A DNA stretch of 63,987 nt, the filler included, from Basidiobolus ranarum (Eukaryota): assembly GCA_040143965.1 (NCBI GenBank). It is 3 parts of 3 records of this genome, joined end to end, with 100 filler letters (N's around TTAATTAATTAA, not from the genome) between each part and the next. Parts side by side here need not be neighbours in the genome. Positions count along the whole stretch, not along the records: positions 1 to 21,614 come from JASJQH010000200.1; 2 more parts are not named here. One strand, given 5' to 3'. Positions 509 to 58,866 of the stretch are shown piece after piece. The first letter of the stretch is position 1, and every line of letters starts with the position of its first letter. Under the pieces are notes generated by a model, which saw nothing but the letters and a program-made list of their open reading frames with translations, ran no database searches and had not been told where the DNA came from. The position numbers and the translations under genes are program-made.

Positions 509-1345
509 TGTTCTTTTGAACGATTTGCACTTCAAGGCAAGAATCCTAAGAGACTAGAAGGGAAATAGAAAAAGGAACAAGTGTTGTTGTAACTGAAGCT
601 CGGCAATTACCATTTTAAATAAGTAACCTGACGGGACAGCAGGGTCCAAATATTGAGAATTTCTATGACGCACCGGGTGTTGTCACGTTCTGATTGGATA
701 CATGGCTCGAAATTATTAAGAAATAATATCTCACCACCGAGCAATATTGATCTGTGTCACTTGCTAGAATTTTCAAGAAAGGAAAGTTAAAAGTAACGAA
801 TGGAAAGATGAAACGATCCATCGCATCACTCATGGCTAATTAATGACAAGTGGTGATCCACTCAACTCTTCAGATGCGTAGACTGTGATAATTGGACTAA
901 CTATAAGATTTCTCTAAACACACATTCTGATTGTCGAAATTCAGCCAATCAAACAAAAACCACAACAAAGAAATCCATGTGACGCAGTAGTTGTCAGAAA
1001 TGGTGAATATTGGGTTTTGTGGAGAGTATGGATAAATGCCTTCAATAACTACTATTGCTAAGTATTTTGGGTGGATCGGCTTTCATGCAATAGTAGTTTG
1101 TTCACGTGCTTATTCTTTTAATATACATAGTGTTTAGTTTAATCAACATTTAGTTGCTATGTTCATTTAACTGCTTATTTGGCTGAATGCACCAACGCAA
1201 TCAATGAACAAAAGAAAACAAATTACCAATCAAATGAATTTTTGAGGTTACGACGTTGTAAGAAATTATTGAAGTTAGCTCTTCTAAGCCATTAAGCATT
1301 ATCTTCTCATACCTCTGATAGTTTTCCCAATCTTGACCTTGAGAA

Positions 1346-4300
1346 ATGGTCGCTGCAGAACCTTGCTATACCGTTATTTGTACAGATGATACAACTGATC
1401 AGTTGTCCATTCAAGAATTCAAAAGTGCTTTTGAAAAAGGCTCAGATGAAGTAAAAATTGAGACGATGAGAAAGTTACTCATTACTATGTTGAATGGGGA
1501 CCCTTGTAGCCAAATCCTCATGCATGTAATCCGTTTCGTCATGCCCTCAAAGAACAAAGCTCTTAAAAAGCTTTTGCATTTCTATTGGGAAATCTGCCCC
1601 AAAACAAACCCCGACGGAAAACTTAAGCAAGAGATGCTTCTTGTTTGGTAATTTATCATCTGTCTCAATTTAAGAATATAGAATGCGTTAATAACTCATT
1701 GCTTTGCAGTAATGCTCTCAGAAGCGATCTTCAACATCCTAATGAATATATTCGAGGTGCCACATTGAGAATTGTTTCTAAATTACGCGAGCCTGAACTT
1801 CTGGAGCCACTTTTGCCATGCTGTAGAAGCTGTTTGGTATATACATATTAATACTACAAGAATTGACACAAGTTAGAGTATTCATCTCCGATTTTATCAA
1901 ATAGGAACATCGTCACTCGTATGTTAGAAAGAATGCTGTATTCGCCATATACAGTATTTACAAATACTGCGACTATTTGATTCCTGATGCTCCTGAGCTT
2001 ATTCAAACTTTCCTTATTGCGGTATATATTTCTATATGCTTTGTAATGATAAGCATTCGCTGAGTCGACTCAATTTTTAGGAAGCTGATATGACATGCAA
2101 ACGTAATGCATTTGTTATGTTATGTAATACGCAACAAGCTAGAGCGGTTGATTATTTGAAGCAGGTTTACAATCAAATTCAAAGTTTTGATGAGCCACTA
2201 CAGCTAGCTATTATCGAACTAATCCGTAAAGACTGCCGTAATAATACTGCTGAAAAGGTATCTAATTGTGTTTTACAATTTAATACTTCTTGGTGTACTA
2301 AGATTATCTCTTTGAAATACAAAGGCCCGATACATTAAATGCATCTTTGAGTTGCTCAATGCTTCTTCCCATACTGTCAAATATGAAGCTGCAACCACTC
2401 TTATGGCTCTTACCCATAACCCTGTCGCGGTGAAAGGTACGGATTAGTATTTTCTTGAAATATTAACACAATAGTAATTCAAGTTCTGTTTAGCTGTTGC
2501 TTCTTGCTACATCGAGCTTATCGCCAAGGAGGCCGATAATAATATTAAATTAATTGTGTTGGATCGTTTAGACGATTTACGTAAAAAACATGACCGTATG
2601 CTGGATGACTTGGTCATGGATATTTTGAGAGTGCTCACCAGGTATATTGTTTTCTTTACACAAAACACCATATACTCGATATTGATCAATTTAATCCAGC
2701 CCAGACATAGATGTTCGTCGTAAAGCATTAGGGATTGCTCTTGAGATGGTATCTGCTCGTAATGTTGTCGAAGTTGTTTCTTTCCTTAAGAAAGAGCTTC
2801 TTAAGACTCAAGATCAGGACTATGAAAAGGTAGAAATCAATCTACTTTTCCTGTAACGTTTGTTAGTGGAGTACTTACTTTTGTTTGATGGACCTGTAGA
2901 ATACCGAGTATCGTCAGCTTATGATCCAAGCTATCCATACCTGTGCCATTCGCTTCTCGGAAGTTGCCTCTGATGTTGTTCACGTTTTGATGGAATTCTT
3001 ATATGATGCTAACAACAGTGCTGCTGTTGATGTTTTGGCATTCGTACGGTATGCTATCCAGCCCAAGTGATTACCCAGAAACGATATTAATTATTTCATA
3101 CATAGTGAGGTTATTGAGAAGATTCCCTCTTTGAGAACCAGTATTACTGGAAAGTTGCTAGAAATTTTCCTTGATATGAAATCTAGCAAAGCTATCAGAG
3201 GAGCCTTATGGATTATCGGAGAGTATTCCGAGGATGCAGTTGGTACGTCAGCTTATTTATTTTTTATTGGAAAATCTGTTCTAATGGCTGGTTTAGGCGT
3301 TCAGGAGGCTTGGAAACAAATCAGAGAGGGTTTAGGTGAGCTACCTATTTTGGCATCAGAACAGGTAAAGAGTATTCCTAAGGTGTGTTTATTTTTGGCT
3401 TCATTTCTCACAAAAGTTTACAGAGTATGCTCGAACAAGCTCAAAGAGAAGAGGACTCCTCAGAGTCGGCACATGATACCAAACAGCCTGCTGTCAGCTC
3501 CTCTCGCCGAGTTTTGGCCGATGGAACATATGCTTCTGAAAGCGCGTTGACCTCAGATTCCAAAACTTCTTCCAAGATTGAGGCCATCAAATCAGCTGAT
3601 AAGCCACCTCTCAGAGGTAAATCCAAGTATATACTTAATGCCGCTTGAACACTATATAACTCTTTTAAATTTGAAACATAGCTCAAATTTTGGGAGGTGA
3701 CTTTTTCTTGGGCGCAGTGCTATCTTCCACATTGACCAAACTTGTTTATAAATACTTTGATCTGTGCGATGATGAAAGAAAGAAAAACACTCTTCGTGCC
3801 GAGGTACTATCAATATGCTCTAACTTCTTTGTACAGCGGTTAACATTTGAATCTAGGCAATGCTTATCATGACGGGCATTATTCGAGTTGGTCAATCCCA
3901 ATTCCCTCCTGCCCCTATTGATGAAGACTCTTATGATCGTATTATGTCATGCATCAAGTCACTTGCGGGATTACCCGCCGATAATGTCATGAAGAACATC
4001 TTTACCGTCGACTGTAAAGCTGCCTTTACCAACATGGTAGAAGTTCAAGAGGTAAACATACGAATATCAAATGCAAAACAAGTGGATACTATAGTCTAAA
4101 CTTATCGATTTGTAGCAAAAGAATGCTGCTAAGAACTCAGAAAATAAGAAGACCACCAAGGTACAAGTTGATGATGCTATTACCTTCCGTCAATTCTCCA
4201 AGAAGAATGCTGCTGATGATGGCGACGAGGTTTGTATTCCTTATTGCTGCATAGCTTATCCATCACCTATTTAATCGACTCTTTCAGTTTGAACTTGATT

Positions 4301-5575
4301 TGACACGTGCCACTGGAGAAGGATATGGACGTGATGATCTTATGTCACAGCTCAATCGTGTCGTCCAGTTAACTGGTAAATGCCTGAATCATCTTCTAGT
4401 ATATATTTGAATGTGTTGTTAAAGTAATTATCTAGGTTTCTCGGATCCTGTTTATGCGGAAGCTTATGTAACGGTTAATCAATACGATGTTTTACTCGGT
4501 AAAAATCTACAAGCACCACCAAATACTTGTATGGAAAATATACTTAAACTCTTTGTATAGACGTATTGGTTATCAACCAAACTAGTGAAACCCTTCAAAA
4601 CTTAACTGTTGAGTTCTCTACTCTTGGTGATTTGAGACTAGTAGAGAAGCCTGGCCAATATACCGTTGGCCCTCACAGTTTCCATAGCATCAAGGCCAAC
4701 ATTAAGGTGAGGAGTGATTTCGCATATCTCTCTCTTTGTGCCTGTGACTTATTTGACGTTAATTATTTCAGGTTTCTTCTACTGAAACTGGTGTCATCTT
4801 TGGTAATATCATCTATGATGGACCTGGGGCTTCTGGAAGCCATTGTATCATTCTCAATGACATTCGCATTGATATCATGGATTATATTAACCCTGCTACT
4901 TGTACCGAAACTCAGGTATTTTTCATTCATTCTTCTGGAATATTTCGGGAATATACTGACGTTAGAGTCTTTAGTTCCGTAACATGTGGACCGAGTTCGA
5001 ATGGGAAAACAAGGTCAATCTTAGTACCACTGCTGGGTATGTTATTTTAATGCACCAATGTCACCATTTGATCATTTGCTTACCAACAAGATATAGTGAT
5101 TTGAAGGCCTTCCTCGACCATATTCTCAAGTCTACCAACATGGCATGTCTTACACCGGATAGTGTTCTTTCAGGCGAATGCGGCTTCTTGTCTGCCAATT
5201 TATATGCCAAGAGCATTTTTGGTAAACTCAACATATTGTGTGCTCTAAATGTGTACGAAAGCTTACTCATTTTTTGAACAAATTAGGTGAGGACGCTATT
5301 GCCAACTTAAGTATAGAACAACACAAGGAAGGACAAATCACTGGACATATCCGTATCCGTAGTAAAACTCAAGGGATTGCTTTAAGTCTTGGTACATATG
5401 CTTGATATTTCTGACAGTATATTAATTGATCTTTACTAACTCGAGAAATATTTGACGGTCTTTCCTTTACAGGGGATAAAATCGCTATGAGTAAGTAACA
5501 ACTTCCGATCAGAGTATTTAGTTTCAAGCAATCTTATTCTGACCATTTTCTCTCGAATCAGCTCAAAAAGCTTGA
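1346..5575 (+). CDS. SEC26: Coatomer subunit beta (beta-COP), about 23 exons
   Basis: Exons joined by ~22 short GT-AG introns give [81 protein letters not shown]; last exons 5473-5490 and 5562-5575 end GDKIAMTQKA*. Confidence 0.96.
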
Positions 5576-6089: not shown

Positions 6090-8950
6090 ATGTCACGTCA
6101 TAGAAATGTTCGCAACCTAGATATTCATGGTGATTTTTTTATCAAGTTTTCTTAGGAAGTATTAGAACTAAAAGGAACTGATTTTACTTTCGAATTTAGC
6201 TGTTCTTGATGAAGACGATTATGATTCTTATGAAGAGTATGAAGAATATGGGAACGAAGAAGACGAGCAAGGTACACCATGGAACCTCCCATGATTTATC
6301 TCTTTGAATCCGTCACTTCGAAGTTATTAACCAAGTATGGTTTACTTTTTACTTTGTATGACTTTAGAGGAACTTGATAAAGCTGTTGATCGCGTAAGAG
6401 AGATCTTGGGTGATGATAGTATACCTAGAAAAGATATTGAAGAATCCTTGTGGCATTATTATCTTGATGTTGATAAAACGGTGACTTGGTTTTTAGGTAA
6501 TAAGGAGATATGGAACTGGTTTAATAAGTTCTTTAAGAATCATTGTCTCACTAATTTTTAAAGATTCTGCAGAGAAAGAGAAGAAGAAGCAACAGGAAGC
6601 AAAGGAGAAGGCTATAGGTTCTTTTTTCTTACTGTGTATATAACTTTCGAGGCAACATAATGTATTAATTCATGTTCATTCGATAATATAGCCCAAAAAG
6701 CTAAGCTCCAAGAACAAGAATCTAAGAAAATTAATAAATCAAAAGAGATCGAGGAGATTGTGGAAGTTGAGGAGGATGTTAACGAGCATCTTAGGTTTGA
6801 TCTGGATGCTTTAAACTTCAAAGGAAACGTACCAGATGCTCCTGTCCCTACAGTCAGATATAAAGTAAAGTCGGAAGGTGAAACTAAGGCTCCAGTTAAA
6901 CCTGTAAAACTGGCTAGCCGTATTAATGTCGAAGAAGAATTCCGGAAGCGCGAGGCTGACAAGGTCGGCCTCAATTTGGTGGTCATTGGTAGACTATTCT
7001 CTAATTTGAATTATACTTGATAGAAACTAACATGAAATTAATAGGACATGTTGATGCTGGTAAGAGTACTCTCATGGGACATCTTTTGTATTTACTTGGT
7101 GAAGTAAACGACCGTACTATGAAAAAATATCCTTTTTCATTCCATTTATGCGCGTGAATTTATTATCGGGATCTTTTCATCTTTAACTCTTTCTAACGTT
7201 TGAGAGAGAGTCACAAAAAATTGGTAAATCCTCGTTTGCATATGCATGGGTTCTGGACGCTACAGATGAAGAGCGTAGCAGGTAATATCAGATACACTAG
7301 CTTTGACTGGTCTGAGAGCTCATTTATTGACGAATTTTGTTTAAAGAGGTGTTACTATGGATGTGGCCATTACGAAATTCGAAAGTCCCAATCGTAAATT
7401 CACTTTGTTGGATGCCCCTGGACATCGTGATTTCGTACCCAACATGATCTCCGGTGCCGCTCAAGTAAGTATTGAAGACAAGTCCTCTTATGACTCTTCT
7501 CTAAATTGTAACTGACTTTGCTAGGCTGATGTTGCTATCCTCGTTGTCGATGCTTCGACCGGAGAATTTGAGTCAGGTTTCATTGCTGACGGACAAACTA
7601 AAGAGCACGCCTTACTGGTTCGCAGTTTAGGTGTTCAACAGTTAGTCATAGCTGTGAACAAGCTTGATAATGTAAATCTTCATCTAATACTGAAGGAATT
7701 TCTGTACTGGTTATTAATTCCTCTTTGACACAAGGTCTATTGGTCCCAAGCAAGATTTGAGGAAATCAAAGAGCAACTAGTAGTGTTTTTAACACAGGCT
7801 GGATTCCGTAAACAAAATATCTCTTTCATCCCTGTGAGCGGACTCACTGGAGAAAACATGATCAAGCTTTCGGAAGATAATCATGAATTACGTTCATGGT
7901 ATTCGGGACCTACTCTTTTGGAGAAGATTGGTATGTCAATTTTACAGTACGTTATCTAAAATGGCTCTAATCATTTTCTGTAAAGATTCCTTTGAACCAC
8001 CTGCTCGTCCTCTTGATAAACCATTCCGACTTCCTGTCTCCGATTTCTTTAAGGGCGGGGTTGGTAGTACAAGTGGTGTTACGGTTAGTGGACGTATCGA
8101 AGGGGGAACCATCCAAATTGGTGAACAGGTTGGAATTGCTCCCATTGGGGAGTATGCAATTGTCAAAGGTAAGGCGAGAGTGCAATTAATAATCCCATCT
8201 GTTCTCTCACTAATAACATTGAATTCTCGAAGCTATTGAAAGCAATGAAGAAAGTGTTAAATGGGCAGCTGCTGGTGATACCGTCATGATTACACTAACG
8301 AATATTGACTTATTACAACTGAGGTATTGATATGTCAAAGGATTACTATGGAAACTTTCTACATGTATTGATATCGGTTTGCTATCAGTATAGGGTCTGT
8401 CCTCTGTAGTCCAACAAGCATGATCCCTGTTGCCTCAACATTCAAAGCACAAATCGTAGTATTCGACATTGCTGTTCCTATCACTATCGGATATCCAGTA
8501 CGTTCAATAATGTTCATATTGATTTAATAATTTTATGGAGCTAACATGCTATTGTTCAGGTTATTCTTCATCACCAAAGTTTAAATGAGCCAGCTGTAAT
8601 TACCAATTTAATTGAATTACTCGACAAAAGCACAGGAGAGATAGCCAAGAAGAAACCCAGGTACATTGGAAATACCAATTCAGTCGTATCCCTTAGCATC
8701 TCAATCTAACTAAATATCCCGCTTTAGATGCTTGACTAAATCTACCACAGCCACAGTCGAAATCAAAACACAGCGTCCATTATGTCTGGAGACTTATAAA
8801 GAGTTCAAAGATCTAGGCCGTGTCATGCTTAGAAAGGGGGGTGATACTATCGCAGCCGGAATTATCGTTGAGGTAAGAAGTACTCTTACGCTTCGATCTT
8901 AGCCAAGACTAACATTTGATTTGTAGATTTATCCGGAGGACCAATCGTAA
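6090..8950 (+). CDS. HBS1: HBS1 ribosome-rescue GTPase (eEF1A/eRF3-like), multi-exon
   Basis: N-terminus [12 protein letters not shown]1 N-domain ([20 protein letters not shown]), G1 [32 protein letters not shown]-terminal [18 protein letters not shown]; stop TAA 8948-8950. Confidence 0.93.
7127..7197 (+). other. U12-type (minor spliceosome) AT-AC intron in HBS1
   Basis: 5' end ATATCCTTTT, branch-like TCTTTAAC at 7180-7187, 3' end ...TTCTAAC; removal restores [22 protein letters not shown] in frame. Confidence 0.9.
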
Positions 8951-9620: not shown

Positions 9621-10320
9621 GGGTTACCTTAGAACTACCTAACTTCGAAGTGTTCATGCTTGAGTGATGAATTTAGACTGCATGAACAGTAAATCCACTT
9701 GATCATGTGCTCATGTGTTGTAACACTGTTGATGGGATCCAAAGTGGCTTAGGCTCCTATTCAAACTTAAGATTTCCAATAGTTTCGATGAATGTTAGAA
9801 AGACCAGTCACAATTGCGTTTCGGTATGTAACCACACAAGGTATTAAAATATGGGAAATTCTCAAACGAGGTCAGAAGAATGCATCCAACCGATTCATCT
9901 ATTCTTTTTTGACAGAAGTTACAGGCAAATGTTCCCAATGCTCACAGTGCTTGTGATGCATGTCATTGGGAGTATAGTAAAAAGAACTGCAGTAAATACA
10001 AGAATTAAAAACGTGTATGATTCGGATAGTGTGATTCGGATAGTTCAGAATCATTTGTTGAATGAGTGAAGGGACAGTGGATTTGTATTAAGGATTCATT
10101 ACAAATTGGACGTTGTTTGTTACAAACACTATATAAATTCGTTCCTTATCCGGCACAAAGAGTTTACTTCATTATCTCTCAATTTCATTTCTTTACCCAA
10201 CTTGGCTGTAACATGTATTGTTGGTTATTTGATTTATAGTCTTTTTTCTAATAAAACCTACTCAACCTTCTTATTTACTTGAAACGCTACCCTTCTTGTT
10301 CTTCCCAGTAGACTATCAAA

Positions 10321-13300
10321 ATGACTCAAGAAACTATCTCCTTAAATGTACACGGTATGACTTGCCAATCCTGTGTTAAAGCGATCAACACAGCCTTGGA
10401 GCCGTTGGGGGGTGTTGTTCAGGTGAAAGTAAGTCTTGAGAATAACACAGTAGAAATAGGGTTTGAACCTCAACTCATCGAAGTCAAAGTGCTCGTAGAA
10501 GCAATAGAAAACTGTGGTTTTCTCGTCTCTCTCCCCTCACAACTCTCCTTAATAAGTAAAAGCACCACCATCGAGCTAGATATCAAAGGAATGACCTGTC
10601 AGTCTTGCGTTAAAGCTATCGAAAGTGTACTTTTACCAAATCCTGGAGTCATAGATCTCAGGGTCAGTCTTGAACAGAACAACGCTACTGTCACGTTCGA
10701 AGAAGATGTCATCGCCTTAAAAGAAATAGTGAGCACCATCGAAGACTGTGGGTTTGAAGTTAAATCTCCTTTAGAATTGGTAGGACCCACTCCTATGGAA
10801 ACATGTGTAATCCCTGTTGAAGGAATGACTTGTCAATCTTGTGTTCGTGCTATTGAGCAGGCATTAAAGCCACTCGATGGTGTCGATTCAGTGAGCGTTG
10901 ATCTTGACGCCAAGCAAGCCACCGTAGTATACGATCAAGCAGTCATCAATAAGCAATTCATTATTGGCACTATTGAGGATTGCGGATTTGAAGTCCCCAC
11001 CGGACCGATCAAAAAAGTCAAGGACAGTCAGATAGATCGTGCTATGGCACTATTGGAAGAGTTCCCTTCAATCGCCTATGACAAGAATATCGACCCAGCC
11101 GACATGATTCCATTGATAAGCATTAGATCCCATCAATTCGATCAAGAATCAGTTGTTGCTGGATCCGTGTCTGTTCATGGAATGTCTTGTGCTTCATGCG
11201 TCGCTAATATCGAACGAACATCAATGGGCCACCATGGAATCGTATCAATTACCGTGTCTCTGCTTTCCGAGCGAGCTGATGTACAGTATGACTCTAACGT
11301 CATTAGCCTCGACGAGATCGCAAATATCATTTCCGCCATAGGGTTTGAAGCCGCTCCAATTGAAATGAATCGTCAAGGAGATGTAACGCTGAAGATCTTT
11401 GGTATGACCTGTGCTTCATGTGTGAATAGCATTGAAAAGGAGATCAGCAAAATGCCAGGAGTTTCCAGTATTTCCGTCAATCTTGCGCTTGAAAGCGCGC
11501 ATATTTTGTTTGATTCGGAGATCACTGGAATTAGAAATATTGTGAATAGAATCCATGAGATAGGCTTCGATGCGTTACTTTCGGATTTCAATTCCAATGC
11601 ACAATTAGAATCCTTAGAGAAAACCAGGGAAATTCAAGAATGGAAGCGAGCTTTTTACCGCGCCCTGTTCTTTACATTACCGGTACTGGCCATTCACAAA
11701 TTCTTCCCCTACTTTTCCTGGGGTCGTTCATTCATCCATTACAATCTGCTGCCTGGGTTACCTTTGGGAGATCTTATCCAAATGATACTCACTATCCCAG
11801 TTCAATTCGGGGTTGGGAACCGATTTTATATCTCAGCGTATAAGGCGATTGCTCATGGTAACCCCACCATGGATGTTTTGGTGATACTTGGTACTAGCTC
11901 TGCCTTCTTCTTCTCCTTGCTCTCTCTCATCATCTCCATTCTACATCCAAAACACCCTCAACCCTCGACATTCTTCGAAGCATCAGCTATGCTCATAACA
12001 TTTGTCACTTTGGGCAGATATTTGGAAAACAAAGCGAAGAGCAAAACCTCCACCGCACTCTCGAAGCTTATTTCGTTAACCCCTTCGACTGCTGTATTAT
12101 TGGAGCATGATGATGATGGCCATGTTATCCAGGAAAAGAAAATCTCCACTGATCTTGTCCAAAAAGGGGATATCTTAAAGATTTTCCCTGGTGAAAAGGT
12201 TCCAGCCGATGGTACAGTAAAAAGTGGCTCTAGTTCAGTAGATGAGTCTATGGTAACTGGCGAACCAATACCCATTTCAAAAAAGCCTGGTGATAGTGTC
12301 ATCGGAGGTACTGTTAACGGAATGGGTTCATTTACGATGGAGGCAACACGAGTCGGAAGTGAGACTGCTCTTTCTCAGATCGTCAAGCTAGTGGAAGAAG
12401 CTCAAACGAAAAAGGCACCAATCCAAGCGATGGCCGACACGATAGCTGGCTACTTTGTCCCAACTGTTATTGCCCTCGGACTTGGAACGTTCTTCGTTTG
12501 GTTGACCATTTGTTATACAACTGAACACCTTCCTCAGATGTTCTACGAAGATAGTAGTTTCGTCTTTGTGTGTCTGAAATTGTGCATCTCCGTCATCGTA
12601 GTTGCTTGTCCATGTGCACTAGGATTGAGTGTACCAACGGCAGTGATGGTTGGTACTGGGGTTGGTGCCCAACACGGGATTCTTATCAAAGGAGGAGAGC
12701 CCCTGGAAACCGCTCATAAGATAACCAAGTTGGTATTTGACAAGACTGGGACATTAACAATGGGAAAACTTGGAGTTACTCATTTCGAAATCTCCCCTTT
12801 CGCCGCCCATCTTTCCTCTGATAAGTTTTGGAGGTTAATCACAGCGGTGGAAAGTAATAGTGAACACCCATTGGGTCGTGCAATTGTCCTTTATACGGAA
12901 CAACAGATGAATCTTGATCTATCTGATATTGATATCGCTGATTTTGAAGCGGCCCCTGGATTGGGTGTTGTCTGTCGAGCTACAATAGCAGAATCTACCA
13001 CCGAAGTGGTCATTGGAAATGAGAAATTGTTATTACAGAAACAATGCGATATTCCTGGAGACCTTTCGGAGGTCATCAAATCCCATAGACGCAAAGGCAA
13101 CGTTGTTATCTTGATCTCTTTGGACTCTAACTTCGCAGGATTCATATGTCTCTCGGATGTGATAAGGCCTGAAGCAAGGCGTGCTATCAAAGCTTTAGAT
13201 AAGATGGGAATCAGTTGTGCAATGGTTACCGGTGATCAAGAACTGACTGCACAAGCCATAGCTGCTGAATGTGGTATTACTGAAATTCACGCTGGTGTTT

Positions 13301-13890
13301 CTCCCTTAGGCAAAACTCATATCATCCAATCCATGCAATCTGAAGGTGAGGTTGTAGCCATGGTTGGTGACGGTATTAATGATTCACCCGCTCTGGCTGC
13401 CTCTGACGTTGGTATTGCCGTATGTTCAGGAACCGATATCGCTATGGAAGCTGCGAGTATTGTTCTTATGAGAGCAGATCTATGCGATGTTGTAGCAGCA
13501 ATTGACCTTTCTAGAGTAATATTTCAACGGATTCGAATGAATTTTATATGGGCGTCTGCGTATAATTTAGTAGCGATTCCAATTGCCATGGGATTCTTTC
13601 TACCTTGGGGAGTTATGATGCATCCTATGATTGCAGGTGCCGCCATGGCATTTTCCAGTGTTAGTGTCGTATGCTCTAGTCTCTTACTTAAATTTTACAA
13701 AAAACCCAACTGTGAAGGAGAAAATATCGGTCCGAATATGGAGATGGAGATGCAAACTACTTCACTTCATGATAACGAAATACTATTTGAATCGGAAAAT
13801 CTTATGGGTAATATTCGAGGTAACTTGGCACCTGGCTTCTCCCAAACTTATATGAAACTTTCCGACACTGAATCCGAGATAATATTGTAG
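10321..13890 (+). CDS. CCC2: P1B-1 copper-transporting ATPase (Ccc2/ATP7 type), intronless
   Basis: Five GMx CxxC metal-binding domains, TGE, CPCALGL, DKTGT, SEHPL, GDGIND, YN and MAFSS Cu(I) transmembrane motifs. Confidence 0.96.
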
Positions 13891-14329: not shown

Positions 14330-17300
14330 TCAATGGCTTACTTGACTCTCTACGGTTAAGCCTAGTAACTCGTTCATGATGGAGTGTTGAAGAGATTTCT
14401 TGAGAGAATGATCAAGGTATTGGTCGAGTATCCGGGAGAAGTTGTCTCTACTCGAGCTGGCAAATACTTTCACGATTTCAAATAACATGGCTATGATCGG
14501 TTTCATCATTTCCTGATTGATGGCTTCGGGGTTAGAGAAGGTGATCAATGCTCTAATAAGAGAGCTGAGCAAGCCCGGAGATTCACCCAATCTCTTCTGA
14601 AACTCTCTACTTTGTACGACGATGAGCTCATAAATTAACAGACACCAATACTCATACTTTGCCAATTTACTCTCCTCTGTCAAGTAACTCACTACACTCT
14701 TGGTAGTGACGAATTCCTGGAATCTTGCGGCAATCAGGGAGACCTGAGATTCCAAGAATTGTTCCCGATTGTTGAAATGCACAGCTATCTTGGCGAGGAT
14801 CTCCAGCGCCATGTCCTCGTAGAGCTCCGTATCCGAATTTAAAAAGTCCATTAACCCTTCGATGATGGCAAGAGCGATCTGTTGATCATGAAAAGTAACC
14901 ATATTCCCGATATTCCCCAAGATGCACAGGAAATTCTTCCGCAGCTCCAAGATTCTGTCCGAGCCATCCTTGAACCTTCCTCTGAATATCTGCGCCGTGA
15001 TCTCCAACAAGTAACTATCGCGAGCCAGGAACGGCTGGTTGGTACCCACAAATGAATAGTGTTTCAACAACATAGAGCTGACAACCGACTGTTCATTGGT
15101 TAAATTCTTCTCTCGTCCCTTTAACGAGCACATATCTACGCGAGATGATTCAAATAAAGAAGAATATGTGGTTGAGTGATCATTTTCTTCTGCTTTAAGA
15201 TCGTCAAACTCCAGCGAATCTTCAATCAGACTTAGGATTGCTTCACAAAGCTCCGGTGATTGTTCCAGCGAAAAGTTGAAATGTTTCTCCAACGACAGCA
15301 TTGACAATATATTTAAGGCGTTCGTGGTCTCCATAGGTAAGCCTGATTTGATCGACATAGTTAAAGCATGAATGTCGATGACACCTAGAATATGTAAATA
15401 TGATCAGCAACGGTCAAATGAGAGGGTCACATGAGCACCCAACACTAAATAAATAACAAACCTAGCTCCCCTGCTTTGGGCCAAATTTTGTTAGGGATTG
15501 GGGATTCGACTTGCTCCAAATCATATCCACCATATGTATTTACAAATCTAGTATATGGATGATAAGAATTCTTGACCTTTTGTTTGTCTCGAGACCCGGT
15601 TATAGAGACTGCTGTTCTTAGTTTCGTAGATGCTAAAGGTGGGGTTGCTTTGGGTTGGCCTGGACTAGACGACCGAACAGATCCAAAGACGTTAGCGCTA
15701 CGTGACGGGGACCCTTGATTACTCTACAATGGAACAAAGTCAGCCCCGTTCATATTCTCTTTGACATAGTGAATGGTACATACCTGAACGCTCGGTGATC
15801 TCGGGATTAATGGCTTATTGTATGGTGAATGTCCTACGAAAAGAAACATACAGGTTTAAAATGGGAGAGTGAGGGGATTGTGTAATTGTAGCCGGAACAA
15901 ACCTCTAGAAAACATCTCTGGCTGTGGAGAATTGCTTAATCTTTTGATTCCACTGATTTTGTTATCGGTAGGCCGGAAGGATTCCACCGATGAATTTGAA
16001 TGATTCTCCTGACCAAGATGTTGTTCAAACGGTAATAATAAAGTGTGGTAGCATGATTTTAATGACCAAGGTGCTTTCAAAGCTGGGTCATTAAAGCCCA
16101 ATCGTTCGGCAATCTGTACCCAGTAGCCCATCTTATCCACCTAAAACATGTCGAGAATATGAATGGCTTTTCAAGTTAAATCATTAAGTAGAGTTGTAAT
16201 TACTTGTTCTACTCCTCCAAGCTTGGTGACAGTTGAGTACAATGTCCAAAGATTGACCACTTGATTACCCAACATCGGTGGTTTAGTGATCGGGGTATTT
16301 CTTTGTTTCATAAAGTCGGTTAAACTACGCAAGAATTGCTGTGGATTAAGATTGATTTTCGTATCAGCTCTGGTGGAGTTGTTAGGGAGTGGATTTTTGG
16401 GGGCTTCGTCAATTCGAGGATATCCATCGGATTGATTTATTGGCTCATTAAATGATGCGGAAGTGACAGTAGGTTGATTAAACGATACTCTATTGGTAAT
16501 GGTTGGATTGTTAAAATTATGGGCTTGTAGATTGGTTAATGTGTTGGATGTTTCATTGGTATACAGATGTTGATGTTGGTTGGTTTCTTCGTTTTGTGTT
16601 GGATTGGCAGTAGACTGAGGATACTGTTGCGATGAGTTCGAAGAGACGTAGGAAAGTGAATTAGTATTGGATTGCACTTGTGGTTGAAACCCTGGTGGTG
16701 CATATTGGTGGCTAGGTAGTTGGCTTTGTTGCGGTGACATCGAATACACCTGATCTTCATTGCTCATTGCTCGATGCGGTTGTTGTTGTTGCTGCTGCTG
16801 TTGTGGTGGTATCTGGGCTCTTTGGATCGATTGTGTGGACGAAAGAGTTGGCACTTGACCAATGTTGTTGGATGACATCTGGCTACTACCTAGGCTGGAG
16901 GATAATCCCGATGTGAACTGCGAGGTGGATGACACAACAGGGTAGTTCATACCATGCTGCGATATGGAGCTTTTTCTAGGCGGTATCAAGGACGGCTTCT
17001 CATTTGAATATGGAAATGAATAATACGGTTGGTTGGAGGAAGAAGAACTCAAGCCATTTTGATTGAGGTCGTGATTGTGATTGTTGTGATCATTACTCTC
17101 AGTCTCCTTAGACAATATATTACGACTATTGTCAGATGCTTTTTCTCCAAATGAACTGTGAGGTTCCAGATACTCTTGTTGCACTTGGGGTATACCATTG
17201 TAAGACAATCTCTGTTGGTTCGTATTTTGAGTTTCGTAAGCCATGGAGGAAGCCTCATAGTTGGAACTGACAAAGGACGCATTAGACTCTTCATTATGTC

Positions 17301-17709: not shown

Positions 17710-19054
17710 TCGCAAAAAAAAGTACAAAAATAGAAAGTGGTAGCGAATAAACGTATGTAAAAGCTAAACCAACAGAAAACTTGGGTTGTTCGAATAACTT
17801 TACTAAAGAAAAGGTTTACTTAACTTCCTAGCTCACAAAGTAGAGTCAATTACTGAAGTTGTGTTACAAAGAAGGCTAAGGTTTACAAGAAATTTTTATC
17901 TATTCCAAAGAATTTCACCATTTTGCGCATGATATGAATTTTATGGTGGAATGGAAAATGATTATTATTAAACAAACATATAAACAAGTACTAATCATAA
18001 TTGACTAACAAAGATTCAAACCCAGCAACGCTTAGACTAAAAACACAATCATGAAGAGTAAAACAATGTATAATGAAAAGTAAACAAAAGCAAGGCTCTT
18101 GGCGCACTCTGGTCATAGCTTGGTTTGTTTACTTTATCAAGAAGAGACTCATAATGGCTTCTAGGGTAGTGTCAAAAAAGAAGGGTAGCGTTAAGATGAC
18201 TACTGGATTACTAGCTCTGACGGTATAGATCAGGTGATGTGTTCCAAGAGGATTACGGAGAGATGATTGGGTTTATACCTTACCAAATACCGCTCATCTG
18301 GTATGAATTGATCGAACACGAAAGGTTCTGCACTTACCATATTAAGACCGATCGAGATGGTTCTATTTTACTTCCGAATAATCCGAACCCTAAGTAAATA
18401 ACCCTAATCCTAACGCTCGAGAACGCTAGCGTATTCATTCATAAGCTGCTGTCATGGAGTAGACACAACTGGGGGAGTATCCGGAGAGATCGTTCAGAGT
18501 ATTGGCATTGTAAGCCTGATCGAGAACCAGAGAAGATAAGATCCACGAGAATTCTAGGAAATACCGAACAAAAGAACTTAGGAGAGTAATAAACAATACT
18601 AATCCAGATGGACCTAAAGGTCGAGGTCCTGATTCCATTAAAAAAAACTGATTAGAATGGAAATTCCCTTTATCGAAGTGACATCTAAAGCTATCCTCCT
18701 TTCAGACGCATGTTTGGATTCAACTCCTCGTGCCTGTATTATTGTTATTGCATACATGGAACGCCCAGTGTATTGCGACAAGTGTCAGTTGGATTTGGAT
18801 GGCCTTTGGATGCCTCATCGAATGGATGCGCATTGATAGCAAATACTGTGATTTTCTAGATAAAAAATCTCGACTAGATTCCCTAGAAGTTGGGAATTAG
18901 ATTGAATCTAAAACGATCTATTATACATATTAGGTATGCGCAATCAAATTACTTGAGTTTCCAGGTTTTGGTGAATATATTTAAAGGGAGTGGAGAGCTC
19001 ATTTTCCGATCACAGTTGCTTTTGCTTCTTCATCACTTTTTTAAATCATCTAAA

Positions 19055-20578
19055 ATGACCTCCCGTCTTGCTTGGATTTCCAACCTCAGTATCGATGTTC
19101 AGCCTTCTTCCAAGAGAAGAACCGCCGTCATCTGTACCATCGGTCCCAAGACCAACAGTGTCGAAAAGATGAACCAACTTCGTGCTGCTGGTATGAACAT
19201 TGTTCGTATGAACTTCTCCCATGGTTCTTATGAATACCACGGTTCCGTCATTGCCAATGCCCGTGAAAGTCAAAAGACCTTCATGCCTGAATCCCCAGTT
19301 GCTATCGCTCTCGATACCAAGGGTCCTGAGATCCGTACTGGTCTCATGGCTAACGATGTTGAGGTCCCTATCCTTGCTGGTCACGAGATGCTCTTCACCA
19401 CTGATGACAAATACGCCGAGTTGTGCGATGGTGAAAGAATGTATGTTGACTACAAGAACCTCCCCAAGGTTATTGAAGCTGGCAAGATCATCTATGTTGA
19501 TGATGGTATTCTCTCCTTCGAAGTTATCGAAGTTCTCGGAGCTGATGTCAAGGTCCGTGCCTTGAACAACGGTAAGCTTTGCTCCAAGAAGGGAGTCAAT
19601 CTTCCTAAGACCGATGTCGATCTCCCCGCCCTTTCCGAGAAGGACAAGGCTGATCTTCGTTTCGGTGTTGAACAAGGTGTTGATATGATCTTTGCTTCTT
19701 TCATCCGTTCCGCTCAAGATGTCCGTGACATCAGAGCTGTTCTCGGAGAGAAGGGTAAGCACATCAAGATCATTGTCAAGATCGAGAACTACCAAGGTGT
19801 CTACAACTTCCCTGAAATCTTGAAGGAGACTGATGGTGTTATGGTTGCCCGTGGTGATTTGGGTATTGAAATTCCTTGCGAACGTGTCTTCATCGCTCAA
19901 AAGGCTATCATCTCCCAATGCAACCAAGCTGGTAAGCCCGTTATCTGCGCTACCCAAATGCTCGAATCTATGACCTACAACCCCAGACCTACTCGTGCTG
20001 AAGTCAGTGATGTTGCTAACGCTGTTCTTGATGGTGCTGATTGCGTCATGTTGTCTGGTGAAACTGCCAAGGGTAACTATCCTGTTGAGGCTGTTACCAC
20101 CATGGCTGAAGCTTGCCAACTCGCTGAGTCTGTCATCTGCTACCCTCAACTCTTCAACGAGCTTCGTGGTCTTACCCAAAGACCTACTGATACCACCGAG
20201 ACCGTTGCCTCCTCTGCTGTTAACGCTGCTTTGGAAGCCGGAGCTGGTGCCATTGTTGTCTTGACCCAATCCGGTAACAGTGCTCGTCTTGTTTCCAAGT
20301 ACCGCCCTAGCTGCCCTATCATCACCGTTACTCGTAACGGTAGCGTTGCTCGTCAAGCTCATCTCCACTCTGGATGTTATCCTTTCCTTTACCAACAACC
20401 CGCTGTTGAAGGTTCTGACCCCAAGGAATGGCAAGAGGATGTTGATGCTCGTATCGAGTTCGCCATTGAACAAGGTGTCAAGAATAACTTGGTCCAAAGA
20501 GGACAACCTATCGTTGTTGTCCAAGGTTACAAGGAAGGTCTTGGTCACACCAACAACATGCGTGTTGTCATTGCTTAA
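19055..20578 (+). CDS. PYK1: Pyruvate kinase, intronless
   Basis: [55 protein letters not shown]; strong codon bias; true ATG at 19055. Confidence 0.98.
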
Positions 20579-21399
20579 GTTGGTTTTAATTTAACTTAGA
20601 TTGCCTTAACACCAATTGTATATCTTATTTTAATAAATATCATAGAACATAACAAACTTGTAATTAATAATGTAAGGAATATTTCCCGAGCAACAGAGAT
20701 GGTATCCAGTGATGGTATCCTTGTGGCTATGAGTATCGGATTCAGCATCTGATTCTGCACACGTGCCACACCACAGGCTTATTTCAGCAGGAAAAAAAGG
20801 AGGAAAAGGAAAAGAAATTATTAGAATTAGTTGTACAAGGATAATCAATCAGATTGAAATTGAGCCCTTTAATCCTCTCTTGTCGCCCTCGTATCCCTAC
20901 CAGTTAATCAGAATTTCGATTCGGTAAAGCATGGCATTAACTTTAATCTGATGCTGGCTGATGTTGATGGATGCTAGAGAGCTATGATGTAAACTGTATG
21001 GGCTACGTATGTTAATGAGTGTATACCATTGGATCGGTATCCTGACTGTCTTAGCCATTGTGAATTATGTCGTGGAAATTCCATGCGAGTAGCGGATTTG
21101 GGGAGAGTGGAGCCAGACTAGATCCAACACAGAACTCGATCCAATTGCAGAATTCAACTAATCGATTAGATTGTTTTGTGATAGGCTTAACCTAAGGATA
21201 TCATGAAGAGCATTCATCGAAATCGACCCTAATTGTTCCAGAACAATTGATATATTGATATTACGAAGTTAAAATTCAATCGATTACCCAATTAGGTTGC
21301 AAGAAAATCCAGTTTTTTGATCTTTCATTCACTATAAAGCTGACTGGATTGATTCCCCTAATCATCACATCTATTTCTTCTTTGTTTACTTGATTTAAT

Positions 21400-21614
21400 A
21401 TGACCTCCCGTCTTGCTTGGATTTCCAACCTCAGTATCGATGTTGAGCCTTCTTCCAAGAGAAGAACCGCCATCATCTGTACCATCGGTCCCAAGACCAA
21501 CAATGTCGAAAAGATGAACCAACTTCGTGCTGCTGGTATGAACATTGTTCGTATGAACTTCTCCCATGGTTCTTATGAATACCACGGTTCCGTCATTGCC
21601 AATGCCCGTGAAAG
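21400..21614 (+). CDS. Second pyruvate kinase copy, truncated by assembly gap
   Basis: 212 of 215 nt identical to 19055-19269; unrelated upstream sequence with TATAAA. Confidence 0.9.
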
Positions 21615-21714
21615 NNNNNNNNNNNNNNNNNNNNNNNNNNNNNNNNNNNNNNNNNNNNTTAATTAATTAANNNNNNNNNNNNNNNNNNNNNNNNNNNNNN
21701 NNNNNNNNNNNNNN
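21615..21714. other. Assembly gap/contig linker
   Basis: N44-TTAATTAATTAA-N44 (stops in all six frames). Confidence 0.97.
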
Positions 21715-29216: not shown

Positions 29217-31834
29217 ATGGATCCTTATCGTCCACCCGGTTATCGTAAGTTATTTACCACGCGAATTCCTCTTTTTTTCTCTTCTTGAGAACGATCTTGA
29301 GTTTCCCCTTTTTTTCAGGATACTTTTTATTACACCATTACTATATTTCCCACCATTATTGGACGATGAAGATATTAACATACTCAATACATATCCATAG
29401 AAACCTATAGTCCTTATGGTCCACCACCTACATCCACCGTTCCTCCAAACATGTATCACCAAATGCCCCCTGGTATGGCACCCACCGGATATCCACCAAA
29501 TGGTATACCCAATACACTCCCCCCTACTCAACCAATGATGAGACCGATGATCAGGCCTATGGGTTATCCAGGTGTTGGCGCACCTATCGCCCAAGCACCA
29601 CCTATGGGTACCATGGCCACACCTAACAGTGAAAAGCTAACAACACTATTTGTGGGGAAAATTCCACCCGGAGTTCCAGATGACTGGCTGGAAAAGATCC
29701 TTCAGGTAAGATAGATTTTCATAAAGAAAGATTTTTATTGAAAGATAAAACAAACTAGACTTTCAAGAGGGAATCTATATTCTCCTTTATACCGAAGGAG
29801 ATTTCTTTTCGATAAATTCAGTAAAAAAAACTTCTCGTTTCGTCCATTTCAATATGGAAAGTTGCTAAGGAGGTTTCGTTGCAAAGCAAAGGATGGGGGT
29901 GGAAAAGAAGGAGGAAGTGTCCATTGAATAGGTTATTATTCTAATGTGATTATAAGAAGAAAAGAATATATATTCCCTCTTAAGAAACTTTAACAATTTC
30001 CAAGATTATTTCAACTTCACTTTCTATCATTAACCAATTACCAACTTTACTCTACTTAGACCTGTGGTACAGTGGTGAAATGGAACCGAGTTAAAGATCC
30101 TTCAGGAAATCCCAAAGGATTTGGTTTCTGTGAATATGCAGATGCTGAAGGAATATTACGAGCTTTACGTATCCTTGGTGGAGAAGGACAAGATCCAGAA
30201 TCAGTAGTTAATATTCCAAGCATAGCAGAAGGTGGAATCCCCAAGAAATTATTGGTATTGTACTTCAAAGGACATCGAAACTTCTTTCATACCAATGTAA
30301 CTAACCTTCTATGCAAATTATTTCTTAGCTGAGAGCGGATGATAAAACTAGAAAATATTTGGATCAATTCGAAGCATCTCGAACTTCATTAGTACGTGTG
30401 ATGTTATTACTATTACTTGGAACCTTTTAACTTACCCTTGGAATTGTTTGCTTAGGATGACTTGGATGCTGATGTGGAGACTCGTCAGGAAATTCAGAAA
30501 GTCATCCAATCAATGTTGGAAACTCTTTTGGGCTCGGAGGCCATTGCTGAAGAGGGTCAGGACAAGAATGTCTCCAGTCATGACCAGACCACTAAATCGG
30601 TGAATGCAACCAGAGATAGGTCGTATCATCATGATGACCGCAGTCAAAGTCGCGATCAAAGAGCTGATAGAAGAGAGAGAAGCCCAACCTTCTCAGAAGA
30701 AGAGGCGGAGGAGCAAAGACGAGCGGAAAAGCGTCGTCGGGAAATGGAAATGGCATATCGTGAGCGAGAAAAACGCTGGGAAAACCATGAGATGTCTAGA
30801 GCAAAGATGTACGAGCGGAATATGATGAGTGATCGCGAGAGAGAGGAGAGACGTATACGTGAGAGAGATTTCATGGAAAAAAGACTTCGCGAATGGAATG
30901 ACGATGAGGAAGAGGAGTTAGGAGAAGAAGAGTATTATCGAGATAGGTCCAGGTGGTGGAGGTATCGTCAGGCTGAGCGTGAAAGAGAGTTGGAGCAAGA
31001 CGAGCGTGATAGAAAACTGGAGCAAGACGAGATAAAGGCAGCAGAAGCTGCAGCCAAGAAAGCAGAAGAGATTCGTCAGCACGAAGAGCAAAGCAAAATC
31101 TCTAATGGCTCAAACCAACATGGTATGTATCTTGAGAGTGAATGAAATTCGAATGAGGTTTTAATTGTATGCTTTGTTGTAGAAAATATCGACTCATCTG
31201 TAGCACGGGAACATACCAAGCTTAAACTCAACCTTAGCACTAAGAAAACTACCGTTGCACCAGTTGCAAACAACGATGGCAATGTATCTTCGGACGAAGA
31301 CGCCGAAGGAAAGAAACGCAAGCGTATCCTAGTCCCATTAGAATATAGTGACGACGAAGATGCAGAAACAAAAGCGCTCCGTAAAAAGCACAAGATAAAA
31401 GAATTGGTCAAGGAGATTCCTGCGGATAAGGATGGTTTATGGAATTGGAACATGAAATGGGATTATATCACCGACGTAAGTGCTCATTTTCTTTTTCTTT
31501 GGAAAACTTCCATCATTGACGTTAGCGTTTTCAGTCGGTCCTCAAGAGTAAGATTGAGCCTTTCATTGCCAAGAAAATAGTAGAATATCTCGGTGTCGAA
31601 GAGAAAGAATTGGTGGCTTTTGTTACCGAACATGTGCGCAAGCACAATCCACCCCAAGCATTAGTGGATGAACTAACAATGGTATGACCTCTACACTCAT
31701 TATCAATTCTTTTTAATCTACTTACTAAGCAAATTAAACCATAGGCCCTTGATGATGAAGCTCCTGTCTTTGTGATGAAGCTGTGGCGCATGGTAATCTT
31801 TGAGTCAGAAGCTCATGCTCGTAAACTAGCTTGA
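29217..31834 (+). CDS. RBM25: RBM25/Snu71-like splicing factor (Pro-rich, RRM, ER-rich, PWI), 8 exons
   Basis: TLFVGKIPPGV, PKGFGFCEY, long R/E tract, PWI-like IPADKDGLWNW...PFIAKKIVEYLGVEE...FVMKLWRMVIFE; first exon MDPYRPPGY 29217-29244. Confidence 0.88.
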
Positions 31835-51152: not shown

Positions 51153-54100
51153 CTAAGTCTCGGAGTGACCATTAGACCGATATCTCCACTCTTCAAGAAT
51201 ATCCTGATGAGGACGTGTCAGTGACCAACTATCTTCATAACTGAACTTGCGTTTCTGGGGTGTTTTACCAGTAGACAGATCAACCTTAATCTCTTCGTTC
51301 ATCAGGCGATCAACAGTACTCTTAGTGTGAGATAGGTGCTCATCGGCTGAATTGTGGAATGTGCTAACGGTGTCGGTGATCGTCGAATAGCAGCCAATCA
51401 TCTCATTCTTATATCCTGACATACTACTCTCCATCTCAATGTCAAGGGATTTAGAGGAGGTGAGTTTCTGTGCCATGCTGGAGCGAAGGTTTTGTGATGC
51501 TTTGATGTGGCTGTTATAGTGTTTATGAGATAGATCCAGTAGCTCATGATTAGCTGCTTCAACCTTCTTAAGTTTCTGTTCCACAACTTTCTCAGAGTTC
51601 CCTACATGAGCACTCAACTGAGATTGGGTATTATCAGCCAGTGCGGTATTGTTGTTGAAGCTGGCCTCAATCTGCCTTGATCCCATCACGACTTGATCAA
51701 GTATTCGTTGCGTCGACGAGACCAGTCCAGTGATGAACTTCGAGTTCTCTGAAGAAGCCTTAGCGGACGTGGAGTGTATAGGTGATTTGAGGTTTTCAAG
51801 AGATGCAACATTCTTTGTCAATGAAGCCTTTAGTTGGCTAGCAGTGGATTGGAAGTTTTGACGTCTTTTGGAACTATAACCATCAACCAGTCTTGCTACA
51901 TCGGTAAGCAGTTGGGTTTTAGCATTGGTATTTTTCTCTCTTTCAAGTTTGAGGGCGGCAGAGAGTTCTTCGTTTTGCTTACGTAGTTTTTCGATCTCTT
52001 GCTCAGCTTCAGTTTGAACAGTTTGCGCCATTGATGTGATTAGCATACTTTGTTTCGCCATCTGGGATTTGGAATCATTTACCAATTTGTGAAAACTCGT
52101 TTCCATTTTCTCTTGCCAGACTCTAAAACCATTGTGATACTTTAGCAGTTCCTGACGGAACGTTTCGAATAAGCCGCTTCCTACTTGTTGTATTGTAGCA
52201 GTCTCTTTACGAAGTGCTGATGCTATGGCGTCATGAGAGTTAGCAACCTGCTGATAGTGAGCGCTTGCGTCAGTTTCAAATTTTTGAAGCTCACTCTCAA
52301 TTTTCGAGTTTCGCTGTGAGACCTTCAGGCAAATCCCATCAACAAGTGTTTCCTGTTCTACCAAGTCATTGAGCTTCTGTGTAATAAATTCGTGTAGATG
52401 GTTGACACAAGAGTCAACAAAGTCATCCTGAGTGTTCTTGAATTCATCGACCTCAGCTTCAAGATTTTCTGCTTGTGAGGTAAGTGATTGCTGAAATTCT
52501 TTAAATAAACGTCTATTCTCCATCTCAATAGCGCTTTTACGATCAATCTTTGCATGCAAATGCTGTGAGTCTTCAAGACTTCTCTTGAGAGTAGAGACCA
52601 AGCCGTTGGCCAAGGAGTTAAGCATTACTTCAGTTTCAGTATGAGCTTGTGTAAGTATTTTTTGTTCTTCCAGAGTTTGCTTCGTGACCTCAAGATCTTG
52701 AGATGTCTCTTGAAGAGTCTCGGAGGTAGATTCCAACTTCTTTTCCGTGGAGGCGAGACGTTCAGAGGTACTGGTTAAGAGATCCAATTTTTGTTTAAAC
52801 TCGATTGTGACCTGGTTTAGTTGTTCCTGAATGGTTTCCATGCTCTTATTCAGTTGGCTTATAAGATCTTGATTACTTTGATTTTCATCCATAAGGGTCT
52901 GATAGTTTTCGGAAGTTAGGTACACTCCGTTTTTCCCACGAGAAGCCTTTAAAAACATGGTGAGCAATGGTTAAAGAAAGATGCATTATACTTATTTACT
53001 CACCATAAGATCGGATTTAAGCCTTTCGATTTCGTCCACATACTCTTTGATAAGGGCTTTCTTGGTGAGTTTTTGGTTGACCTCAGGCTTATTACGGATA
53101 CTTTTGGCACTACTAGCATAATCAAGGGTGCTTTGAGTTTCCTCAAAATTGATTCTTGCGGGAGAGACAGTGGCAATGATACAGGTTTTTGTTCTGCCAC
53201 CGAGAGAATCTTGAAGCAGACGAGTAAGTTTACTCTCTCTATATGGAATGTGCGGTGATCTCTCTACTAGTGAATTGATCACTCTTCCAAGGGTAAGTAA
53301 ACTTTGATTGATCATGCCAGCTTCTCGGGCTCTCTTATTTTCGGCCCCTGAACGACCAATGTTTTCGGACCCAGCCAAATCGACAAGATTAAGCTTACCG
53401 ACTTTCAGAAGGTCTTCGCCGCTTGGTGTGGATTCTTTGATATGTACAGTGATGGAAAAAACACTATGGGAACGACTAGATTTATCGTTACATTTAGTTG
53501 CCGCCATTTTTCGTCTCAACGAACCTTTTTGAAGTAATTGAATACCATCCATAGCATTATTTACCAGGAACTCCTCCAATCCACGAATAACAACCGAACC
53601 TTTTCTGGCTACATCGAAGATTTGAAGCCTTTTTGAATTGTCATCAGAGGCTAATAAATCCTTTAATTCTTCGTTGTAAAGTTCGATAAACGAAAGACGA
53701 ACAGAATATTCGGCGGTTTCGGATTCTAATCTTTCAAATAATCTGTGAAGAGTTCGAGGAATTATACCAGCATCTCTAGAAAATGAATTGTTCACTTTTT
53801 CCAGGTTTCCTTCCATAGTGTAGGTTTTACCAGTACCAGTTTGACCGTAAGCGAATATTGTACAATTGTATCTAAAATGACTCATTAGATACAGAGATTT
53901 ATGTTTGAAATAAAATGCGACTTTACCCCATTATCACCTAATCAGTGAAGATGAATTCAAACGAAATGAAATGCTATACTTGAGTAAGGATTCAACACAA
54001 AGGTGTACACATAAAATTCAAATGAATACCTCTTCTAAGAAAGACTTGACAACGTTGTTATAAATATGTTCTTGTGTAGCATCAGGGCCAAATACTTTAT

Positions 54101-54454
54101 CAAAAGTATACGTTCTTGCGGTCTTCTCATATGGACCCGCTTTCAACGAAATCTCTGAGCCAATTAAGTTATTACTATGAACCGCAGAAGGAGAATTTTC
54201 GCGTAATTCTCTATCATTACGACCACTGCAAATACCAGGATTTAGTTTGGCTGTGAATAGTGAGAGCAGAAATAGAGCACTTACCGGCATCGAACAACAA
54301 CTTGAATATTACTTTCTTTCTCTACAGCTTGATATTTTGCTTCGTTCATGACTCTACGTCTTTGTACTTCAACAGGCCGACGCCCACTGGAAGGCTCAAC
54401 CAAACGTCGCGTTGAAGTGGATGAAGGCTCACCTGGATGAGATATATGTGACAT
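51153..54454 (-). CDS. bimC: Kinesin-5 (BimC/Eg5) spindle motor, 5 exons
   Basis: [56 protein letters not shown], coiled-coil stalk, BimC box TGKTPQKR. Confidence 0.95.
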
Positions 54455-58572: not shown

Positions 58573-58866
58573 ATGCGCTCGACTATGTTTGTGTCAATCA
58601 TTTTATCCCTTAGTTTGGTTACTATTGCTGATCCATTTCCTGTTAACGATCATGCAAGCGACATTACCCCAAGAGTGCCTCACCCAGCAGTTGGGACTTT
58701 GGCTTCCTGGAGACAGAAGATGGGAAACGCAGTTGATTACAAACCGGGCGACGAGTATGAAGAGAGTGAGTTTGAAGGATACGCTGACAGTTACGCTTAT
58801 CTTTTACCAGAGGCCCAATATTCGTATGATGCTGATGAAGACGAAGATATTGAGGATGACAGCTGA
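58573..58866 (+). CDS. Small secreted acidic protein (97 aa)
   Basis: TATATAA ~75 nt upstream; signal peptide MRSTMFVSIILSLSLVTIA; D/E/Y-rich C-terminus. Confidence 0.6.
   Translation: MRSTMFVSIILSLSLVTIADPFPVNDHASDITPRVPHPAVGTLASWRQKMGNAVDYKPGDEYEESEFEGYADSYAYLLPEAQYSYDADEDEDIEDDS

Follow-up and report, generated by a model that had tools for sequence, protein, structure and literature searches.

A probable AT-AC U12-type intron in the HBS1 gene of Basidiobolus ranarum

Results

A 71-nt AT-AC intron within the G domain

The 71 nt at positions 7127-7197 (+ strand) are very probably a bona fide AT-AC intron of the U12 type, intron 6 of the 15 in the Basidiobolus orthologue of HBS1; the intron lies in phase 2, and its removal is the only one found to give a colinear product. 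Positions here and below are those of the window, by which we mean the whole stretch of B. ranarum DNA that was analysed (63,987 nt, filler included). Read directly, the region 7100-7210 has the form ...CGTACTATGAAAAA/ATATCCTTTTTC...CATCTTTAACTCTTTCTAAC/GTTTGAGAGAGAG..., where the slashes mark the intron borders. The intron opens with the letters ATATCCTTTT and closes with CTAAC, the last base being 7197, so that its terminal dinucleotides are AT (7127-7128) and AC (7196-7197).

U12-type introns carry a donor of the form RTATCCTT(T) and a TCCTTAAC-like branch-point motif that precedes the 3' splice site by roughly 10-15 nt. The 5' splice site of the HBS1 intron, ATATCCTTT (7127-7135, +), agrees with the donor consensus RTATCCTTT at nine of nine positions. 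The branch-point motif, TCTTTAAC (7180-7187, +), agrees with TCCTTAAC at seven of eight, its single mismatch being a T for C at position 3. The putative branch adenosine is at 7185 or 7186, which places it 11-12 nt from the 3' end of the intron, and the motif itself stops 10 nt short of the final intron base; the terminal AC at 7196-7197 (+) completes the set of signals. The preliminary description of this DNA had reported the length of 71 nt, the donor, a branch motif 10 nt from the end and the terminal AC, and all of these agree with the sequence at 7127-7197.

Exon 6 (7045-7126, +) encodes the P-loop region, ends in AA and aligns with residues 294-318 of mammalian HBS1L, while exon 7 (7198-7281, +) opens with G, closes with AG and aligns with HBS1L residues 321-348. 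Joining 7126 to 7198 rebuilds a split lysine codon, AA/G, in a spliced peptide that includes MKKFERESQ, at a site between the P-loop and switch I of the GTPase; we thus reproduced the excision product proposed earlier, ATG AAA AA/G TTT GAG AGA, with its phase-2 junction. With the 71 nt retained, translation would run into a stop codon after 10 codons (ORF 7005-7157, ending ...YPFSFHLCA), indicating that correct minor splicing would be required to produce a functional Hbs1.

The interrupted gene encodes HBS1

The coding region extends from 6090 to 8950 (+) and consists of 16 exons and 15 introns, with a spliced coding sequence of 1872 nt that encodes 623 aa plus a stop codon. Fourteen of the 15 introns are GT-AG and intron 6 alone is AT-AC; the other 14 are 54-96 nt long, making a length of 71 nt locally normal. 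Introns 1 to 5 are all in phase 1 and bound the short exons of an acidic, lysine-rich N-terminal part (6130-7044, +).

Assignment of the gene to fungal HBS1, as originally proposed, is borne out by several lines of evidence. A Pfam search of the product identified an HBS1_N domain (PF08938, 2.4e-14), a GTP_EFTU G domain (PF00009, 4e-53) and the HBS1 D2 and D3 domains (PF03144, 7.2e-08; PF03143, 7e-16; PF22594, 8e-33). The best match among solved structures for the peptides of exons 6 and 7 was mammalian HBS1L (1.5e-08 and 4.1e-07, respectively), ranking above its paralogues eRF3, eEF1A and Ski7, and the named database matches were HBS1-like proteins from fungi and animals. A deposited B. ranarum protein is, moreover, 100% identical. 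Based on orthology, this eEF1A-like translational GTPase would be expected to partner Dom34/Pelota in rescuing ribosomes and in no-go decay.

One junction leaves the conserved peptide without gaps

We enumerated all frame-keeping removals between 7095 and 7261 for nine pairs of terminal dinucleotides, and only removal of 7127-7197 gave a product free of indels. The preliminary description had stated that no GT-AG removal was possible, which is too strong as worded, since some GT-AG removals keep the frame, among them 7154-7206 (53 nt) and 7104-7204; what holds is that none of them avoids indels, as each introduces them into an invariant stretch of the protein. In-frame removals with GC-AG and other termini exist as well, and the product of each contains an insertion or a deletion.

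Comparison with relatives pointed to the same junction. Residues 212-246 of the AT-AC product align without gaps to 79 of 80 HBS1 relatives from metagenomes (80 of the 455 loci confirmed in an alignment-based scan, chosen for their long uninterrupted matches); a metagenome scan with the B. ranarum protein alone gave 203 pattern matches, none of which was confirmed. The spacing between the DxGKST and AWVxD motifs is 39 in the AT-AC product and in all 124 homologues containing both motifs, out of 129 database homologues examined, the remaining five lacking motifs. None of the 124 showed a spacing anomaly of the kind that would mark an orthologue mis-modelled at the junction. The residues FER that directly follow the terminal AC fit the pattern [FY]-E-[RKQ] of the relatives. 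Because the bases differ both between 7126 and 7197 and between 7127 and 7198, no neighbouring junction would yield the same mRNA.

Deposited Basidiobolus proteins already contain the AT-AC junction

A search with a 65-aa exon peptide matched, at 100% identity, a 623-aa hypothetical protein of B. ranarum (P0001, NCBI), and the 16-exon chain with the AT-AC junction translates exactly into this protein. Given this identity and the lack of an equivalent neighbouring junction, 7126^7198 must already be the junction in the public model for B. ranarum. The orthologue from B. meristosporus CBS 931.73 (P0002; K493DRAFT_285504), 92-93% identical, has the same junction peptide, such that MKKFERESQ occurs in both deposited Basidiobolus proteins. 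These deposited models are predictions, and they already splice the AT-AC junction. The expectation that predictors restricted to GT-AG introns would mis-model the gene is therefore not true of the public models for either Basidiobolus species. Among the 120 short matches listed, no transcript-derived protein fragment spanned the junction at 90% identity or above (the best reached 82%), and none of the 120 had a border at residues 218-232.

The signals are at chance level, and their placement is not

The window contains 10 copies of RTATCCTT where 6.0 would be expected, and 7 of 100 shuffles reach 10. For a composite signal made up of the donor, a branch motif carrying no more than one mismatch, and AC or AG correctly spaced, about 1.0 occurrences are seen per random 64-kb sequence; 129 of 200 Markov shuffles contain at least one, with a maximum of four among the 200. 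The actual window contains five composite donor sites including that of the HBS1 intron, two of them inside a long coding ORF. By itself, then, the combination of motifs is at chance level in 64 kb, and its significance rests on placement.

With regard to placement, the chance of finding the donor 9-mer at one fixed position is approximately 1.5e-5 (arithmetic from window composition). The alignment of the flanking exons to HBS1L residues 294-318 and 321-348 requires exactly two residues between them, and the junction 7126^7198 provides just these two (KK), the first from a complete AAA codon and the second from the split AA/G codon. The donor 9-mer begins at the sole base that restores the conserved peptide.

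The other composites are at 58782 (-; 58628-58782), at 21201 (-; 21003-21201), and at 16423 and 16624 (-; 16368-16624). Those at 16423 and 16624 fall within a long ORF for an ARID protein, and the number of these four other sites is in the chance range. An RRM exon at 30060-30329 includes GTATCCTT, which is read through as coding sequence.

Alternative explanations for the 71-nt insert

The real intron could instead be a U2-type GT-AG intron at 7154-7206, with GTGAAT as the donor, CTAAC (7193-7197) as the branch point and ATATCCTTT as coding sequence. Removal of these 53 nt is in frame and free of stops, its size and loose donor resemble those of other HBS1 introns (54-96 nt; their donors include GTGATT and GTTCTT), and CTAAC is the branch-like motif in HBS1 introns 5, 13 and 15. 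The product, however, would exchange FER for the nine residues YPFSFHLCA, a net gain of six, in a stretch whose spacing is invariant at 39 in 124 of 124 homologues with both motifs and which aligns without gaps in 79 of 80 relatives, and the codons TTT GAG AGA, encoding an FER that fits the [FY]-E-[RKQ] of those relatives, would have to be an intronic coincidence. It would also require use of the second AG, as the first (7203-7204) is out of frame with the GTGAAT donor, and both public Basidiobolus models contain the AT-AC junction rather than 7153^7207. Taken together, these points make a GT-AG intron at this site very unlikely. The AT-AC intron might also be removed by the major, U2-dependent spliceosome, given that rare U2-type AT-AC introns occur in other eukaryotes. 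The U2-like form of such donors is ATAAGT, whereas the donor at 7127 is the extended U12 consensus sequence ATATCCTTT, and a U12-type branch motif 11-12 nt from the 3' end likewise argues against U2-dependent removal, as do the hundreds of minor introns and the minor snRNA genes that have been published for the genus (PMC10639083, PMC11347168). We regard this explanation as highly improbable.

It could also be proposed that the 71 nt are an insertion or an assembly error and that HBS1 is a pseudogene, since they shift the frame and lead to a stop after 10 codons on read-through. All 16 exons are nevertheless intact and together encode a full 623-aa HBS1 with all of its domains, exact splice signals are present at both ends of the insert, and the same spliced peptide is found in an independent B. 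ranarum model and in the orthologue of a second species, leaving us with next to no reason to favour a pseudogene over the AT-AC U12-type intron.

Discussion

A model for splicing of the HBS1 intron

From what is established about U12-dependent splicing, the ATATCCTTT donor would be paired by U11 and the branch motif TCTTTAAC by U12, with the branch adenosine at 7185 or 7186 bulged. Although the third position of the branch motif is T where the consensus has C, a G-U pair with U12 should still be able to form there. The 3' site, AC at 7196-7197, would be picked by its short distance of 11-12 nt from the branch adenosine, and U4atac/U6atac.U5 would then catalyse the joining of 7126 with 7198. 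Cutting of the HBS1 intron by the minor spliceosome, and the encoding of that machinery in the B. ranarum genome, are both likely. That the intron might be rate-limiting for Hbs1 expression, as the preliminary description suggested, is a speculative reading.

Minor introns in Basidiobolus and other fungi

Retention of a minor spliceosome by B. ranarum would agree with what has been published for its congener, B. meristosporus, which is reported to have the highest minor-intron density of any fungus (0.554%, n=249; Larue & Roy 2023, PMC10639083). A separate study reports 237 minor introns in B. meristosporus together with genes for U11, U12 and U6atac (Olthof et al. 2024, PMC11347168), and describes a putative divergent U4atac that was recovered at a lower threshold (PMC11347168). 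Rhizophagus irregularis (Glomeromycota) is reported to have 205 minor introns (PMC10639083), a density similar to that of humans, all four minor snRNAs and many of the specific proteins, whereas no convincing minor introns are reported for Ascomycota and Basidiomycota, and the reconstructed ancestral density for Zoopagomycota is low (PMC10639083). Within the 64-kb window, no Rfam family reached its gathering score, and none of the genes present resembled a minor-spliceosome component. The main texts of the two studies do not mention HBS1 (PMC10639083, PMC11347168), and none of the other papers listed in a literature search dealt, judging by title and abstract opening, with a minor intron in HBS1 or HBS1L.

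The HBS1 intron shares its genus and its intron class with the minor introns of B. meristosporus, and the orthologous model from that species has an identical junction peptide. The consensus features of the B. meristosporus introns follow those of animals and plants. The published catalogues cover this congener, whereas the window matches B. ranarum instead. R. irregularis is likewise a fungus outside the Dikarya with minor introns, although it belongs to a different phylum; its HBS1 protein (P0031), compared at the protein level, is colinear with the AT-AC product in the junction region.

AT-AC U12 introns of animals and plants have in common with the HBS1 intron a /ATATCCTT donor, a TCCTTAAC-like branch motif near the 3' end and a terminal AC. 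They differ from it at position 3 of the branch motif, where the animal and plant consensus has C and the HBS1 intron has T. At 71 nt, the HBS1 intron is also much shorter than typical animal minor introns, a length that instead fits the 54-96 nt range of its own gene. A non-zero phase is a further feature in common with the animal and plant introns, for which a phase bias is reported (PMC10639083).

Age of the intron and its significance for annotation

All 80 metagenome relatives are uninterrupted at the position of the junction, and nine of the 80 have introns elsewhere, one of them in a locus that is closest to a Mortierella protein (71% identity). It is conceivable, but on balance doubtful, that the HBS1 intron was gained in the Basidiobolus lineage, or converted there from U2 to U12 type, as part of a burst, and is not ancient. 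Such an origin would fit the low ancestral density reconstructed for Zoopagomycota when set against the record density of B. meristosporus (PMC10639083), and it would fit the absence of the intron from the 80 metagenome relatives. That absence is weak evidence because the relatives were chosen for long uninterrupted matches. The intron is thus not universal at this position of HBS1, and the metagenome set cannot separate gain from loss. Whether the position is ancestral or gained bears on the origin of the abundance of minor introns in Basidiobolus.

The HBS1 intron is an ordinary representative of an already catalogued type, annotated implicitly and one of roughly 250 expected in the genus. 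It adds nothing on the distribution of the minor spliceosome, since the genus has been published as the fungal one richest in minor introns and the public model already splices the AT-AC junction. Its main value concerns annotation quality: it provides a clean, self-validating AT-AC example in a gene of an essential pathway from a fungus outside the Dikarya, and gene finders applied to Basidiobolus must permit U12-type splice sites.

Other features of the window

Several neighbouring genes were recognized in the window. Positions 1343-5274 (+) contain coatomer beta, with Adaptin_N, Coatamer_beta_C and platform domains distributed across many short exons. An uninterrupted ORF of 1192 aa at 10312-13887 (+) codes for a P-type copper ATPase that contains five heavy-metal-associated stretches; it is intronless, although its neighbours are dense with introns (15 within 2.9 kb in the case of HBS1), and the G+C content at this ORF is slightly higher, at 0.40-0.42 versus 0.37-0.39. 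A strong match to PF10712, annotated as 'NAD-specific glutamate dehydrogenase', lies exactly antisense to the N-terminus of HSP70 (2-400 on the + strand, 2-553 on the - strand). PF10712 is known to originate from translation of HSP70 in antisense, so the match is probably not a gene.

An uninterrupted ORF of 563 aa at 18887-20575 (+) encodes pyruvate kinase, and the opposite strand is open for 514 aa (19049-20590, -). Approximately 0.8 kb downstream, at 21394-21663 (+), there is a second match to the N-terminus of pyruvate kinase, which may represent a tandem paralogue. Positions 51156-54308 (-) encode a kinesin with a kinesin-associated microtubule-binding tail.
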